Assembly: GCA_965200865.1 (NCBI GenBank)
Contig: CBDAVG010000002.1
Location: 1,097,838 to 1,161,837 of the forward strand
Reading direction: 5' to 3'
From: an uncultured candidatus Porisulfidus sp.
Lineage (GTDB): Bacteria; Pseudomonadota; Gammaproteobacteria; Poriferisulfidales; Oxydemutatoraceae
Length of the DNA: 64,000 nt
Shown here one piece after another: positions 29,826 to 35,618 of the stretch (position 1 is the first letter of the stretch; every line of letters begins with the position of its first letter). The notes under the pieces were generated by a model. The model was given only the letters and a program-made list of their open reading frames with translations. It was not told where the DNA came from and did no database searches. Made by a program: the position numbers and the translations under genes.

Positions 29826-30560
29826 AGTACAGTGCCGGATCATTCTTCTCCATTCATTGCCATATTTACTACCGTTCGTCCATTTGCCTCTCATCACACT
29901 AGACACTAGGTTAATATCAAGGTTTTACACTTATAGGAAATTTCATGAATCAAAAACATCAAGTTGGCGGCAGTGATAAAGATTTCATTGCAATAAAATC
30001 TGGTCAAAAGAACCATGAAAGCTATGGATTACCCAGTGCAAAAGACTATTCTACTGAACTATTGGATGAAGCACCTGAGGTTTTAGTTGGCATGAAATCT
30101 CTTGAGAATGCACTTAAAAAAGCTGATGAATTACTTTTGAGAGGTCAAGAATGGAGATTAGTTAAAACACCACATGAAACAGTTATTATTGATAGGCGAT
30201 GTCTTCGCCATATATTTATAAAGCGAGACCAACAGAGAGAGAAGTTTATTAATTGGATAATACCTACATTGACTGACCCGAATGAAATTTGGTTGACTGA
30301 ATATGATGATGGTTTCCGTCGTCAGTTTTATAAATTCTTCAAGGGTAAAAAAATATGTTAGTGATTGCTCGAGAGAATAAAGATGGTAGCTTTTTGTGGA
30401 ACGTTATACCGACGAGCAAAATAAACTATATTGACAAGAGAAGGAAGGGTAGGTTGTTGTATAAAAAGTGAGGGTTATGGGGTCTCTAACCAAATGGTTA
30501 GGCATTTAGCAGCAGCAAGATTATGTAAACGACCTAACTCTGATAACCTAACTCACACAA
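29826..30560 (+). repeat. Repeated gene cassette copy 1 (~0.7 kb). It has a conserved 5' region and ORF 29945..30361 (138 aa) truncated by a frameshift at an A7 tract, with the remaining ~38 codons readable in the +1 frame.
   Basis: Aligns with copies at 33497-34300 (intact C-terminus) and 34690-35345 (minus strand, A8 tract frameshift). Confidence 0.7.
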
Positions 30561-31226
30561 CCCTCATTAAAAGTATACCACAATGTCAACTACATGCGTA
30601 GGGGATGCACAAGACCATTCCCCTCCTCTAGAGAGGTAGTCGTATCGTGGAGCTATTGAAAAAGTACCGACATTGCACAAACCCAACCGCTTTGCGCCCT
30701 CAAATTTACGCAAACGGTAGGGGCGGACTCGCATGTCCACCCTAACGCGTTGCGTCTGCACAATCAATCCATTCATCCATTTCGTCTTACGCTAACCATA
30801 ATTCGGTGGCGCATGGCGATTCTATTTTTCAACAACCCGGCGTATCTACACCAGTCAATTCCTCTCCTCTGGAGAGGTGGCAGGCTTATGCATTTTGTAA
30901 TGCATGTGTTGAGCAATCATGTTGAGGTTCTGTACAGCGTCACTCCGATTGATTTTGATATACGTACTGTTTCTAACGAACACAATATTTAGATTTTGTA
31001 AAAAGTTACGCCACTTGACCTACCGGTTCAAGTGGCGGTTTCACTCGGATCAATCGGCGGTTCTATCTGACGGGGTGGTTGCATCGTATCTGCACCAGTC
31101 AATTCCACAATAGAAAATCGGTGTATGGGTTATAATGGAATCCGTCCGCAATATGCATTGGGGAGTCAAACCCCCAATGCACTTTTGGTATGACATTAAA
31201 ACAATATCATTGATTTCTTAGGCACT

Positions 31227-31490
31227 ATGGCACAACATATTTCAATCATACACTCGGAGCAGAAAGGCTTACAGAAAATCGCAAAAAGTCTCTTAGAAAA
31301 AACCTCAAGAGGGATTTGGGTAATTGCCGGGGCACTGAAATTTGAAGAGCTGCCATACCAAGAATACAAGATGAATTCTCACGACAGAGTTTTTGTAACT
31401 GAACGAAATGTGAACGGACAAAAACAAAAGTTTGAACTACATTACGATACAAAGGCTGAAAAAATACTAAATGTATTTCTCGTAAAATGA
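31227..31490 (+). CDS. Hypothetical 87-aa protein, first gene of a two-gene cassette with the PLD nuclease.
   Basis: ORF 52 nt upstream of the PLD gene; its 5' end is duplicated downstream of the cassette at 32468-32560. Confidence 0.5.
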   Translation: MAQHISIIHSEQKGLQKIAKSLLEKTSRGIWVIAGALKFEELPYQEYKMNSHDRVFVTERNVNGQKQKFELHYDTKAEKILNVFLVK

Positions 31491-31542
31491 CCTCATCCTA
31501 AAATGAATAAAGACCCTATTTAAGTTTTATCTCTAAAAATAG

Positions 31543-32460
31543 ATGTCCATACTCCTTCTCTCAAATAGCGATTATCCAATCGGCAAGATTATTAAACAAG
31601 AGCTACAAGATGCAAATAGTGTACAAATCGCCGTAGCATTTTTAAAGTATTCGGGTGTGAAAGAAATTGATAGCTCTTTGAAACAGTGCTTGAGCAATGG
31701 AGGAAATGTTGAGTTGATCGCTGGTCTTGACTTCAGAACAACTGACCCGCAATCAATTCGCTATTTTCTAGATTTAAGAAAGCAATATTGCGAAATTAAT
31801 TTTTACTGCTTTGGTGATAAAGGAGAGAATAAAACTGACGTTGTTTTTCATCCAAAGATTTACCTTTTTGAAAACCAACAAGAAAGGACAGGAATTGTCG
31901 GCAGCACAAATCTGACAAAAGGAGGTTTGATGTCAAATTTTGAAGTTAATACAATCTTTAGAGAAAAAAAACCACTTCATTTTTCAAAACTGCAGGCGAT
32001 TTATAACTCAGTGAAATTTACTGATTCAGTTTTTGCCCCCGATGAAGAATATTGGGCAAGATACTCTGATGTTTATCGTGCATTCTCTAAAAATGAAAAT
32101 CAGGCAAAAAAAGACAAAGAGTTGAAAAAAGATATCAAAGAAATACAAGACAGAGAACAAACTTTGCCCGGTACTGTTCCCTCGCTTAAATTACTAATTA
32201 TTCAGGTTATCAAGAAAAAATTGGCCAATGGTCAAAAATTTGTGCATTTAAAAGAAATTTATGAAGGAGTGGAAAAAATTATAAAAAATGAGGAGTTGTC
32301 TTACAAAATGGATACTTTACACAATACCATTCGCGGTGAACTGAATCATCATGAAGACGAAAGCAGCCTACCTAGAAATATGCACTTATTTATTCGCTCC
32401 AAAGATTTGAAGGGATACTATACCTTGACTGAAAAAGGTAAAAATTATCAAGGCCGTTGA
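31543..32460 (+). CDS. Phospholipase D-family nuclease-domain protein (Nuc/NgoFVII/BfiI-like N-terminal domain) with a C-terminal domain of unknown function.
   Basis: HxK motif HPKIYLFEN...GIVGSTNLT (HxK-x4-D/E-x6-GSxN) near aa 105. Confidence 0.6.
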   Translation: MSILLLSNSDYPIGKIIKQELQDANSVQIAVAFLKYSGVKEIDSSLKQCLSNGGNVELIAGLDFRTTDPQSIRYFLDLRKQYCEINFYCFGDKGENKTDVVFHPKIYLFENQQERTGIVGSTNLTKGGLMSNFEVNTIFREKKPLHFSKLQAIYNSVKFTDSVFAPDEEYWARYSDVYRAFSKNENQAKKDKELKKDIKEIQDREQTLPGTVPSLKLLIIQVIKKKLANGQKFVHLKEIYEGVEKIIKNEELSYKMDTLHNTIRGELNHHEDESSLPRNMHLFIRSKDLKGYYTLTEKGKNYQGR

Positions 32461-33613: not shown

Positions 33614-33787
33614 ATGAATCAAAAACATATTGAATACTTAAATTTGACAGATGACGTTTTCTTCAAACGATATTTCTCAAGCAATAGGCAAGTACTGCTC
33701 TCGCTGATTAAGAGCTTCTTGCTGATCTCCGATAGTGGGCTTTGTCGGATAAGTGAGAGGCATTGCCCAATCAAGTCCGCATTGTGA
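33614..33787 (+). pseudogene. Fragment (57 codons) resembling the N-terminus of Rpn/YhgA-like PD-(D/E)XK nuclease-transposase proteins, fused behind the cassette start codon (MNQKH...).
   Basis: LTDDVFFKRYFSSNRQVLLSLIKSFL resembles the Rpn-family N-terminal motif; the ORF stops after 57 codons. Confidence 0.35.
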
Positions 33788-34289
33788 TAAAGGTGTCGCC
33801 ATCATAAAGCTCAATCAACCAAAATATAGAGATTACGGATTACTGAGCGTAAAAGAGCTTCCAGAATCTTCGTTTGCAGACACTCCTAAGCTATTGCCTA
33901 AAGCAAAATCAGGTGACCTAGCTTATGCCCAGATTATAAAAACTGTGCTTGGTGAAGGAAATAGCAATCGACTCATCCGTACACCGCGAGAACCAGTTGT
34001 TGTCCCCAAAGAAGGATTAAAACATATATCTGAAAAACGGGAAGCCTTTCGTGAACGCTATGCTAACTTTATTCTTCCTACATTAATGGAACCGAACGAA
34101 ATTTGGTTGACTGTCTATGAAAACGGTAGTTTACGCCGTCGGTTCATTAAGCTCTTTAAGGATGGAAAAAGTATGTTAGTGATTACTCGAGAGAATATAG
34201 GCGGTAGTTTGTTTTGGAACGCTATACCAGCAAAATTAAAATATATAGACAATCAACGAACCGGAGTTTTGCTTTATAGGGGTTACTAA
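33753..34289 (+). CDS. Cassette paralog copy 2 (178 aa ORF); C-terminus intact, N-terminus replaced.
   Basis: Shares ...PTLxxPNEIWLTxYxxGxxRRxFIKLFK... with copies 1 and 3 and continues through MLVITRENIGGSLFWNAIP in frame. Confidence 0.55.
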   Translation: MRGIAQSSPHCDKGVAIIKLNQPKYRDYGLLSVKELPESSFADTPKLLPKAKSGDLAYAQIIKTVLGEGNSNRLIRTPREPVVVPKEGLKHISEKREAFRERYANFILPTLMEPNEIWLTVYENGSLRRRFIKLFKDGKSMLVITRENIGGSLFWNAIPAKLKYIDNQRTGVLLYRGY

Positions 34290-34799
34290 AGTGCGTGGCA
34301 AGCTGAGTCTCGCGTAACAGTTAGGTGTTTGTAGTAGCCGAATGAACTTAAAGCCTAACCTAATTTCATCCGCCCGATGCTTGCCACACAATAAAAGTAT
34401 ATCACAATGAAAATAGACATTAAAATCAAAAACGAAAAAGTTTTGCGAGCCAGTAGGTCAATCGGCGTGACGCTATGCAGAACCTTAACATGATTGTTAA
34501 ACGCATGTATTACAAAATTCATACGTTGACACCCCTCCACAGAAGGTGAATCGTCTGCCCCACGCATGTAGTTCAGACATTGTGGTACACTTCTAATGGG
34601 GGTTGTGTGAGTTGGATTATTAGAGTTAGGTCGTTCACATAATCTCGCTGCCACTAAATGCCTAACCATTTAGGTCCGGCCTCCCGCAACCCTCACTTTT
34701 TACACAACAGCCTACCTTTCCTTCTCTCATCAATATAGTCTATTCTGCTCGTAGGTATAGCGTTCCACAAAAAGCCACCATCTTTATTCTCCCTAGCAA

Positions 34800-35225
34800 T
34801 CACCAACATATTTTTTTTGCCTTAAAGAGCTTAATGAACCGCCGGCGAAAACTACCGTCTTCATAGGCAGTTAACCAAATTTCATTCGGGTCAGTTAATG
34901 TAGGAAGAATAAAGTTAGCATATCGTTCGCGACAAGCTCCTCGTTTTTCAGATATATATTTTAATCCTTCCTTGGTGATAAGAACTGGTTCTCGTAGTGT
35001 ATGAACAAGCCGATAATTATTTTTTTCACCAAGCATAGCTTTTATATTTTGAGCGAGAGCTAGATCATCTGATTTTTCTTTAGGCAACAATTTAGGTACT
35101 TCTACAGAAGCAGAATCTAAAAATTCTTTTATACTAAGCAATCCATAGCTTTTATAATTCTTTTGACCAGGTTTTATTTTAACGACACTCTTGCCACTGC
35201 CGCCAACTTGATGTTTTTGATTCAT
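34800..35225 (-). CDS. Cassette paralog copy 3 (141 aa), truncated by a frameshift at an A8 tract.
   Basis: N-terminus MNQKHQVGGSGK identical in style to copy 1; downstream out-of-frame continuation MLVIARENKDGGFLWNAIP. Confidence 0.55.
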   Translation of the reverse strand: MNQKHQVGGSGKSVVKIKPGQKNYKSYGLLSIKEFLDSASVEVPKLLPKEKSDDLALAQNIKAMLGEKNNYRLVHTLREPVLITKEGLKYISEKRGACRERYANFILPTLTDPNEIWLTAYEDGSFRRRFIKLFKAKKICW

Positions 35226-35618
35226 GAAATTTCCTATGAGAGTAAAACTCCGATATTAGCCTGAATGTCTAGTGTGATCAGAGGCGAATGGATGAACGGT
35301 AGTAAATATGGAATGAATGGAGAAGAATGATCCGGCACTGTACTTGTGCAGAACCGCAGCAACCACCCCGTCAGGCTCACGCCTGCCACCCCTCCAAAGG
35401 AGGGGAATGATGGTTGCCACGAATTAAATGGATGAATGGATTGATTGTACAGGTGCAAAGCGTTAGGGAAGGCATGTTAGCCTTCCCCTACCGTTATCGT
35501 AAATTCAGTGGCACATAGTGGTTTGATTTGTGCAGAACGGTAACGTTAGAGTGGTTTGCGTAATCAAGTGGTGCAAACGTTTGAGTTGGTGCAGAACGGT
35601 ACTTTAGGGAGGGCATGT

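Follow-up and report, generated by a model that had tools for sequence, protein, structure and literature searches.

PBECR2 (phage Barnase-EndoU-ColicinE5/D-RelE-like nuclease 2; Pfam PF18810) is a domain whose endoribonuclease activity is a prediction of the paper that originally described it (Iyer et al. 2017, PMC5512222). Its active site comprises a His (or Arg) residue within the N-terminal helix together with a C-terminal Ser or Thr, and solo versions of the domain occur in phages and in elements with an apparatus resembling type IV secretion systems (T4SS) (PMC5512222). Described here are three related PBECR2 cassettes, called copies 1, 2 and 3, in a 64,000-nucleotide stretch of the contig CBDAVG010000002.1 from an uncultured candidatus Porisulfidus sp. 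(the "window", to whose positions all coordinates refer unless another contig is named). Only copy 2 encodes the whole domain, although its native 5′ end is disrupted. Copies 1 and 3 are broken by a frameshift at an A-rich junction. The length of this tract differs between near-identical genomes and toggles the reading frame.

Homopolymer tracts that alter the reading frame are known from other bacteria. For poly-A loci of Vibrio cholerae O1 a phage-resistance phenotype has been shown, and reversion has been shown for manA (Seed et al. 2012, PMC3441752). A or T runs of about 9 nt are those at which slippage in transcription typically becomes significant (Baranov et al. 2005, PMC1088944). Such slippage rescues homopolymer-disrupted genes in insertion sequence (IS) elements and in endosymbionts (PMC1088944; Atkins et al. 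2016, PMC5009743).

Reading frames of the three copies

An earlier note on this DNA, made from the letters alone, had described three paralogous cassettes, and all three are present. Copies 1 (29945-30361) and 2 (33753-34289, with its native start at 33614) are on the plus strand, and copy 3 (34800-35225) is inverted with respect to them, on the minus strand. The upstream reading frames of copies 1 and 3 are frameshift-truncated PBECR2 genes of 138 aa, ending in ...KFFKGKKIC, and of 141 aa, ending in ...KLFKAKKICW. Their stops, which had been reported to be at the identical position, are one codon apart (after KKIC in copy 1 and after KKICW in copy 3). Copy 2 has an intact open reading frame (ORF) of 178 aa from the GTG at 33753, or of 131 aa from the TTG at 33894, and contains a complete PBECR2 domain.

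The junction strings quoted in the note, GGTAAAAAAATATG at 30344 (copy 1), GGCAAAAAAAATATG in reverse complement at 34807 (copy 3) and GATGGAAAAAGTATG at 34161 (copy 2), are correct in all three copies. In the clade to which these genes belong, the junction is a Gly-Lys-Lys-Asn-Met loop written GGN AAA AAA AAT ATG, which contains a run of eight A (A8). Copy 1 has A7 (30347-30353, plus strand), the in-frame alleles having either A8, encoding Lys-Lys-Asn, or G followed by A7, encoding Glu-Lys-Asn. Copy 3 reads AAGGC-A8 (34811-34823, minus strand; the T8 of the plus strand is at 34811-34818), and its in-frame alleles read AAGGGC-A8 or AAGGGT-A8. The A8 tract had been taken for the lesion of copy 3. 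It is, however, the length found in in-frame alleles elsewhere, and the base that is missing is a G of the preceding G run. Both copies are one base short. The equivalent junction of copy 2 is GAT GGA AAA AGT ATG (34161-34175), without a long A run.

The codons past the break had been noted as preserved, and 38 of them are open in both broken copies. They encode MLVIARENKDGSFLWNVIPTSKINYIDKRRKGRLLYKK in copy 1 (30355-30471, plus strand) and MLVIARENKDGGFLWNAIPTSRIDYIDERRKGRLLCKK in copy 3 (34693-34809, minus strand), each followed by a stop codon. Their frame is -1 (= +2) and not +1 as first described, and one extra base or a -1 ribosomal slip restores it.

Family membership and position of the break in the fold

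All three copies match the Pfam PBECR2 profile with E-values of 3e-24 to 1.6e-18, in agreement with the earlier hunch of a ribonuclease (RNase)-like toxin fold. Copy 2 scores 86 bits (gathering cut-off 27.1; E 3e-24), its match covering positions 13-120 of the 120 in the profile, and copies 1 and 3 reach 68.6 and 67.5 bits when conceptually restored. Without one added base at the junction, neither of these two matches the profile all the way from about position 15-21 through to the end (15-120 of 120 for restored copy 1), showing that the domain spans the break. By their sequence the window genes are stand-alone PBECR2 genes, predicted metal-independent RNases such as are carried by phages and conjugative elements.

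In an AlphaFold2 model of copy 2 (35 sequences; predicted local distance difference test score of 85 and predicted template-modelling score of 0.81), the junction residues form the loop 134-139, situated between the second and third β-strands (residues 127-133 and 140-147). The truncation removes from this model three of the five strands, one helix and the near-invariant residues E147, N148, R169 and G171. The downstream part of copy 1 corresponds accordingly to the last three strands and one helix of the domain. Judged by the model, the truncated products of copies 1 and 3 are almost certainly inactive. A conserved Ser (GSLFWN) is located past the frameshift, and the helix residue is His in copy 1 (LRHIF) and copy 2 (LKHIS) and Tyr in copy 3 (LKYIS); these residues are as read in the window genes and not by their place in the published alignment.

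Forty-eight distant relatives (35-43% identity), found in metagenomes and on IMG/VR viral contigs, align over nearly the whole of the 165-aa region. All 48 are unbroken single ORFs and none has an A run at the junction, where the sequence reads GLFxG(K/R/E)xD. The A8 run is therefore lineage-specific and there is no ancestral requirement for a frameshift. At least five of these relatives (five were checked) are the C-terminal module of MuF-like head proteins of about 440 aa, that is, MuF-PBECR2 fusions of Mu-like phage, and the upstream ORFs are Mu-type portals in both cases checked. Another relative's contig, L054, has solo PBECR2 copies inside an F-type transfer cluster (TraC/TraG/TraU), between two TraU-matching ORFs. 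These flanking ORFs (L054 7361-9977) match the N-terminal part (profile positions 10-230) and the C-terminal part (241-305) of TraU, and it looks as if the cassette splits traU. A second PBECR2 copy, frameshifted by an A9 run, follows on the same contig. Searches of PHROGs and PADLOC gave no match for the PBECR2 protein, which is therefore not a catalogued defence-system component.

The junction in related strains

The population carries both ON (in-frame) and OFF (out-of-frame) alleles, as the same genes are in frame in sister strains. The syntenic strain L002, about 94% identical in housekeeping genes, has the same island, in which the orthologues of copy 1 (GGT-G-A7) and copy 3 (GGT-A8) are both in frame. 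The copy-1 orthologue is at L002 15178-15705 and reads GGT GAA AAA AAT ATG; an A8 allele of it occurs in L058. Over 2,683 nt, the contigs L057, which has A8 and is in frame, and L005, which has A7 and is broken, share 99.74% identity. The only gap between them is in the tract, and all 6 substitutions are in the neighbouring upstream gene. A dead, 5′-truncated fragment copy also varies, having A8 in L002 and A7 in L005, showing that the tract length changes without selection.

A survey at the DNA level covered 15 clade copies having both halves, from eight loci, the tract lengths being those of consensus assemblies. Seven copies are in frame: four with GGT/GGC-A8 or GGT-G-A7, one with the interrupted run AAAAAG (L003) and two of the copy-2 type, GGAAAAAGT. 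The remaining eight are out of frame, all of them at the junction (six with A7, one with A9, and copy 3 of the window with AAGGC-A8); seven of these are 1 nt short and one, the A9 allele, is 1 nt long. In a survey of proteins, 43 clade sequences were informative; of these, 31 read through, the tract is the site of the break in 10, and 2 are frameshifted elsewhere. Second lesions are represented by an extra downstream 1-nt deletion in L056 and by the frameshifts elsewhere in P0009 and P0014. The suggestion that the slippery tract is an indel hotspot is thus upheld by the coexistence of in-frame and out-of-frame alleles among close relatives. The comparison with other genomes that the note had proposed revealed variation in tract length but no conserved frameshift. 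Between copy 1 and L002 the 38 downstream codons differ by 2 synonymous changes and 1 non-synonymous change, too few to give power to a ratio of non-synonymous to synonymous rates (dN/dS).

Origin of the out-of-frame alleles

The out-of-frame alleles are probably null alleles of dispensable, mobile-element-derived PBECR2 genes, produced by non-programmed mutation at a hotspot. The cassettes would have been left in a variable, repeat-ridden island beside rimP-nusA-infB, where the A8 homopolymer and the adjoining short G run would form a hotspot for replication slippage. Copies 1 and 3 would each have lost one base there by slipped-strand mispairing, with translation ending 3-4 codons later. The genes appear to be dispensable, and the OFF state would be a simple loss of function and not a regulated state. 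Some observations weigh against this explanation. The downstream codons of both window copies are still open, which fits a recent or reversible switch, or a low-level rescue, as well. In copy 3 the lesion falls next to the A run, not in it, and at the site of a recombination joint, making homopolymer slippage less certain for this copy. Seven of the eight OFF alleles are shifted the same way; this is accounted for by a bias towards deletions, but would also be expected if -1 rescue were required. The alleles were, moreover, seen as consensus assemblies and not as reads, which bears on their reversibility within one strain.

If the frameshifts were an artefact of sequencing or assembly, the true sequences would be in frame and the apparent breaks would be homopolymer miscalls of a long-read metagenome assembly. 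Related contigs have long-read-style names with coverage values (ctgN_Nx_l/c), deletions in homopolymers are the commonest long-read error, and seven of the eight OFF alleles are deletions. However, the assembly is not generally error-prone at A7/T7, because 19 of the 26 long homopolymers of the window (runs such as A7, T7 and C6) are found within long ORFs that are intact, infB and nusA among them, and the gene of 305 aa that contains the only other A8 run is intact too. For the copy-3 orthologue, a long-read contig of 64x coverage (L004) and an independent NCBI assembly (L005) give the same A7 allele. In copy 3 the missing base is in the G3 run and not in the A run, and errors would not explain the hybrid structure of this copy. 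An artefact is unlikely, and only a slight chance can be given to it. It is also scarcely probable that the broken copies are split genes. Each would then consist of two coupled cistrons, the 38-codon tail having its own ATG, which follows AAGGG and an A-rich spacer and overlaps the upstream stop (ATATGTTAG), and the two pieces would reassemble across the β-hairpin loop. The split does lie in a surface loop of the model, the overlap of start and stop is like that of translationally coupled genes, and an ATG is present at the start of the tail in 15 of 15 clade copies at the DNA level, where the distant relatives have Leu, Phe or Ile. Yet the Met and the AAGGG are also found in all in-frame alleles, in which they simply encode K-G...M, and the split state is not conserved. 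A 38-aa fragment with three of five core strands is unlikely to complement efficiently, and the proposal is a purely structural speculation. Programmed recoding had been put forward in the earlier note. The A7 and GC-A8 alleles would then yield full-length protein, either through -1 ribosomal frameshifting on A AAA AAA or because RNA polymerase adds an extra A; the broken genes would be functional, and the efficiency of slippage would set how much they are expressed. Both window copies need the same -1 correction, as do seven of the eight OFF alleles; the downstream frames are open; and the corrected products read ...KKNMLVIAREN, identical to the in-frame homologues. In copy 3, GC A AAA AAA lies in the phase of an X XXY YYZ heptamer for tandem slippage, and transcriptional slippage is known to restore some disrupted genes of bacteria (PMC1088944, PMC5009743). 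Nevertheless, the requirement is not conserved: orthologues of copies 1 and 3 are in frame in L002, L057 and L058, and the 48 distant relatives are contiguous. One allele (A9) needs a +1 correction, and the T AAA AAA of copy 1 and of the L004 and L005 alleles is no canonical heptamer. Downstream of the tract, 70 nt fold no better than shuffled sequences (z of +0.38, +0.80 and +0.41). In dnaX the Shine-Dalgarno (SD)-like element is about 10 nt upstream of the slippery site, whereas the sole such element here, AAGGG, is immediately upstream of the tract. The runs of A7 (copy 1) and A8 (copy 3) are shorter than the approximately 9 nt at which transcriptional slippage typically becomes significant (PMC1088944). 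There is very little likelihood that the alleles are recoded. The argument that truncation at one position in independent copies must be non-random is weak, since any local 1-nt loss meets the same out-of-frame TAG/TGA and a homopolymer is the expected site of random indels.

The main live alternative is adaptive phase variation, which is possible although doubtful. The A tract would be kept as a contingency locus, at which stochastic, reversible A8/A7 switching, independent in each copy, would be a form of bet-hedging by the population, with a costly or toxic RNase either expressed or silenced, for instance in conflicts with phages or mobile elements. Phase variation and hotspot decay would share a mechanism, slipped-strand mispairing, and would differ in reversibility and selection. 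ON and OFF alleles do occur in near-identical backgrounds, and both are found among strains from one metagenome sample (L002 and L004). There are shorter and longer length variants (A7, A8 and A9), 10 of 12 disrupted clade proteins break at the tract, most OFF alleles are without a second lesion, and A8 runs are otherwise rare (two in 64 kb, both inside the island). A precedent exists in V. cholerae, with A8 to A7 in wbeL and A9 to A8 in manA (PMC3441752). On the other hand, runs of A7 and A8 are short for high-rate switching, and reversion of the A7 allele of wbeL was not detectable (PMC3441752). The variation of the tract in the dead fragment copy shows that selection is not needed. In the sequences there is no sign that the tract is maintained by selection: the run is interrupted in L003 (AAAAAG) and absent from the copy-2 type (GGAAAAAGT), both of which are intact, and it is absent from 48 of 48 distant relatives. 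In this genome 68% of Lys codons are AAA, and AAA-AAA would be expected by chance in about 47% of Lys-Lys pairs; it was found in 29 of 63. The family also decays in other ways, by 5′ truncation, by the insertion in copy 2 and by second frameshifts, and the island is filled with remnants. If phase variation were nevertheless true, this would be the first phase-variable PBECR nuclease and a way into the function of the PBECR family, and a third, leaky state might arise besides if the OFF alleles were rescued by -1 shifts at a low level or reassembled from two pieces. Reversible switching, if shown at the level of reads, would raise the importance of the locus.

The comparison establishes that the genes belong to the PBECR2 family, where the tract falls in the fold model, that there is an ON/OFF polymorphism and that recoding is not conserved. 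The observation is real but ordinary in kind, adding to the PBECR2 genes and to the homopolymer frameshift polymorphisms already described. Under hotspot mutation and decay, an accident at the codon level, the writing of Lys-Lys-Asn as A8, would create an indel hotspot that dominates the inactivation of a dispensable multi-copy gene family. The same truncation seen twice does not argue for programmed recoding. Annotations of the 138-aa and 141-aa products ought to mark them as coming from frameshifted PBECR2 genes. As the function of PBECR domains is not experimentally known, the ON/OFF polymorphism in matched near-identical strains would be a convenient starting point for tests of what these predicted RNases do.

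Flanking sequences and recombinant structure of the copies

The conserved 5′ flank of copy 1 (29796-29944, plus strand) is a leader with an AGGAAA SD-like sequence ahead of the ATG. It matches the flank of copy 3 (35226-35374, minus strand) with 88% identity (29796-29944 onto 35374-35226), and its inner part matches the flank of copy 2 (33522-33628, plus strand) with 89% identity (29853-29959 onto 33522-33628). Across copies and strains the 5′ flank is 83-100% identical, compared with 37-57% for the central coding region between two sequence types. The conservation of the 5′ flanks claimed previously is confirmed, and the inner part (29853-29944 in copy 1) is specific to PBECR2 copies. The outer part (29780-29828) is a generic intergenic repeat, present all over the window. 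When scanned for the sigma-70 consensus, the conserved 5′ flank showed no promoter, and promoter-like sites were not in excess. The PBECR2 paralogues are mosaics of two N-terminal and two C-terminal types.

The flank of copy 2 ends with the native start ATG AAT CAA AAA CAT (33614-33628). After codon 5 the gene is disrupted (33629-33774, plus strand) by insertions of 112 nt (33629-33740) and 21 nt (33754-33774), about 133 nt together, which put the native start out of frame. Copy 2 does read through to its C-terminus, as reported, but it is not pristine. The same disruption is present in strain L002, and the same insertion is in frame in the 210-aa relative P0009. An origin of the insertion from a PDDEXK_2/Rpn-type gene was considered and is not supported by Pfam or BLASTP (E 9.4).

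Copy 3 (34693-35225, minus strand) has a recombinant structure, matching the full copy c3h of L002 over its 5′ two-thirds and, over its 3′ third from the tract onward, the adjacent 5′-truncated fragment copy c4 of the same strain. With respect to L002 10001-11167, about 640 nt lying between these two matches are deleted, with the joint at the poly-A/G-run site. Given this hybrid structure and deletion, the missing G is situated at or near the recombination joint.

Each PBECR2 gene of the window is followed by a hairpin of about 100 nt, located at 30472-30603 after copy 1 and 34290-34409 after copy 2 (both plus strand) and at 34558-34692 (minus strand) after copy 3, where it is of the copy 1 type. 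A similar hairpin is found at L054 9076-9197. The inner stem, GTTAGG...CCTAAC, is conserved. The outer stems differ and yet stay paired: GAGGGTT/AACCCTC in copy 1, GTGGCAAGC/GCTTGCCAC in copy 2, and also GTGGCAGGT/ACCTGCCAC and GGGTGAG/CTCACCC. RNAalifold, applied to a MAFFT alignment, did not recover the outer stem, as the divergence between the two types is too great for them to be aligned, and single-sequence folds were used. A 3′ flank common to copies 1 and 3 had been noted correctly (30263-30603 and 34904-34558, 84% identity). The 3′ flank of copy 2 diverges, as had also been stated; it is not an unrelated sequence but a diverged version of the same hairpin element.

The hairpin of copy 1 is followed by the conserved AAAGTATACCACAATG, and that of copy 2 by the ATG of a remnant downstream gene (MKIDIKI...). 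The sequence AAGTATACCACAATG follows the hairpin and, in the conjugative-element context of L054, is where the next gene begins, so that the cassettes of the window have the look of remnants cut out of a mobile element. The hairpin itself may serve as a terminator or as a site of processing or recombination. Integron gene cassettes with attC sites (RYYYAAC...GTTRRRY) were rejected, as the order of the hairpin motifs is reversed (GTTAGGC...CCTAAC) and there is no integrase-like ORF in the island.

The island and neighbouring genes

The copies are located in a low-coding island (29.7-36.1 kb) between rimP-nusA-infB (25239-29718, minus strand) on one side and three large unannotated ORFs (36109-42201) on the other. 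The best named relatives of NusA are at most 59% identical (Ca. Thioglobus and metagenome-assembled genomes of unclassified Gammaproteobacteria), and several relatives with 89-99% identity occur in the same metagenome collections. The host is an uncultured gammaproteobacterium known from sponge and reef metagenomes.

The earlier statement that the cassette has no transposase has to be qualified, as an IS3-family remnant (32877-33436, minus strand) abuts the 5′ flank of copy 2. It has only HTH_Tnp_1 of orfA and HTH_21, which is the start of orfB, with a classical A AAA AAG heptamer at the orfA/orfB overlap; the DDE catalytic domain was not found in it. The remnant is conserved in strains L002 and L004, where it has the same position. 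An intact PLD-family nuclease-like gene of 305 aa (31543-32460, plus strand) separates copies 1 and 2, and its reading frame is preserved despite an A8 run (31964-31971) and an A7 run (32106-32112). It matches PLDc_2 and the N-terminal domain of the NgoFVII restriction endonuclease, with weak matches to the PbeA/DrmC-like models of PADLOC. The gene calls over this stretch are different in strain L002, where there are ORFs of 60 aa and 193 aa. The start of an 87-aa ORF (31227-31490), together with its upstream sequence (31210-31305), is duplicated at 32457-32549, just past the PLD-like gene, with 80% identity; the second copy has a stop at codon 3.

The large ORFs that adjoin the island, all on the minus strand, encode 684 aa (36109-38163), 635 aa (38341-40248) and 618 aa (40345-42201). 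None of them has a Pfam match, and the 684-aa ORF has no PADLOC match. Two of the three cross-match weakly, at about 66% over 455 nt. All three adjoin the PBECR2 island in L002 and L004, and in L055 only the 684-aa ORF is seen beside a PBECR2 gene.

Modular short repeats, consisting of modules of 30-150 nt in both orientations, fill almost every intergenic gap of the window. They are found at about 15.5, 17.9, 21.5-22.3, 24.46-24.83, 30.6-31.1, 34.4-34.6, 35.3-36.1 and 38.2 kb, and further at 42.3-42.6, 47.0-47.3, 49.6-50.7, 53.5-53.6, 54.1-54.3, 56.1-56.3 and 59.1-59.5 kb. Examples of their hairpins are CAATCGGCGGTTCTATCTGACGGGGTGGTTGC...TCTGCACAA and GGGGCGGA...TCCGCCCTAA, and tandem arrays of them are present at 21675-22196 (125 nt x4.2) and 24462-24834 (84 nt x4.4). 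They look like mosaic elements of the repetitive extragenic palindrome (REP) or miniature inverted-repeat transposable element (MITE) type. A search of the island against Rfam gave matches at chance level only, and no Rfam family matches the short repeats there. A separate tandem array (11150-11441) has 12.7 copies of the 23-nt unit ACCTTTTCTGTACCCTCCCTGCG, with 86% matches, and lies inside a nominal 157-aa ORF of the minus strand; its period is not a multiple of 3.

Comparison with known systems

As in wbeL and manA of V. cholerae, an intragenic A8 or A9 run in a gammaproteobacterium drops one A and a stop follows a few codons on, with both alleles present in natural isolates. However, the wbeL tract is 100% conserved, whereas the PBECR2 tract is not universally kept, and the PBECR2 genes look dispensable and are known here from sequence alone. 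The broken copies resemble slippage-rescued pseudogenes in having an ORF interrupted at an A run, such that one added A in the mRNA would restore the protein. They differ in that the runs of the window are 7-8 nt long and the disruption is not conserved among orthologues. With the -1 frameshifting sites of dnaX and IS3 (A AAA AAG), copy 3 has in common an in-phase A AAA AAA, and the neighbouring IS3 remnant has A AAA AAG itself. The window copies, unlike those sites, are without a downstream stimulatory structure, a correctly spaced SD sequence and conservation, and copy 1 is without a canonical heptamer.

What the window genes share with known PBECR2 proteins is the domain itself: the region of about 165 aa is homologous to the C-terminus of the MuF-PBECR2 proteins, with full-length profile matches, and a relative sits in an F-type tra cluster, as in the published contexts (PMC5512222). 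In contrast to the PBECR2 genes of phages and T4SS elements, those of the window stand alone, in several copies on the chromosome; no phage or transfer genes adjoin them, and only the IS3 remnant is nearby. They carry their own conserved leader and 3′ hairpin, and copy 3 has a Tyr where the helix of copies 1 and 2 has a His.

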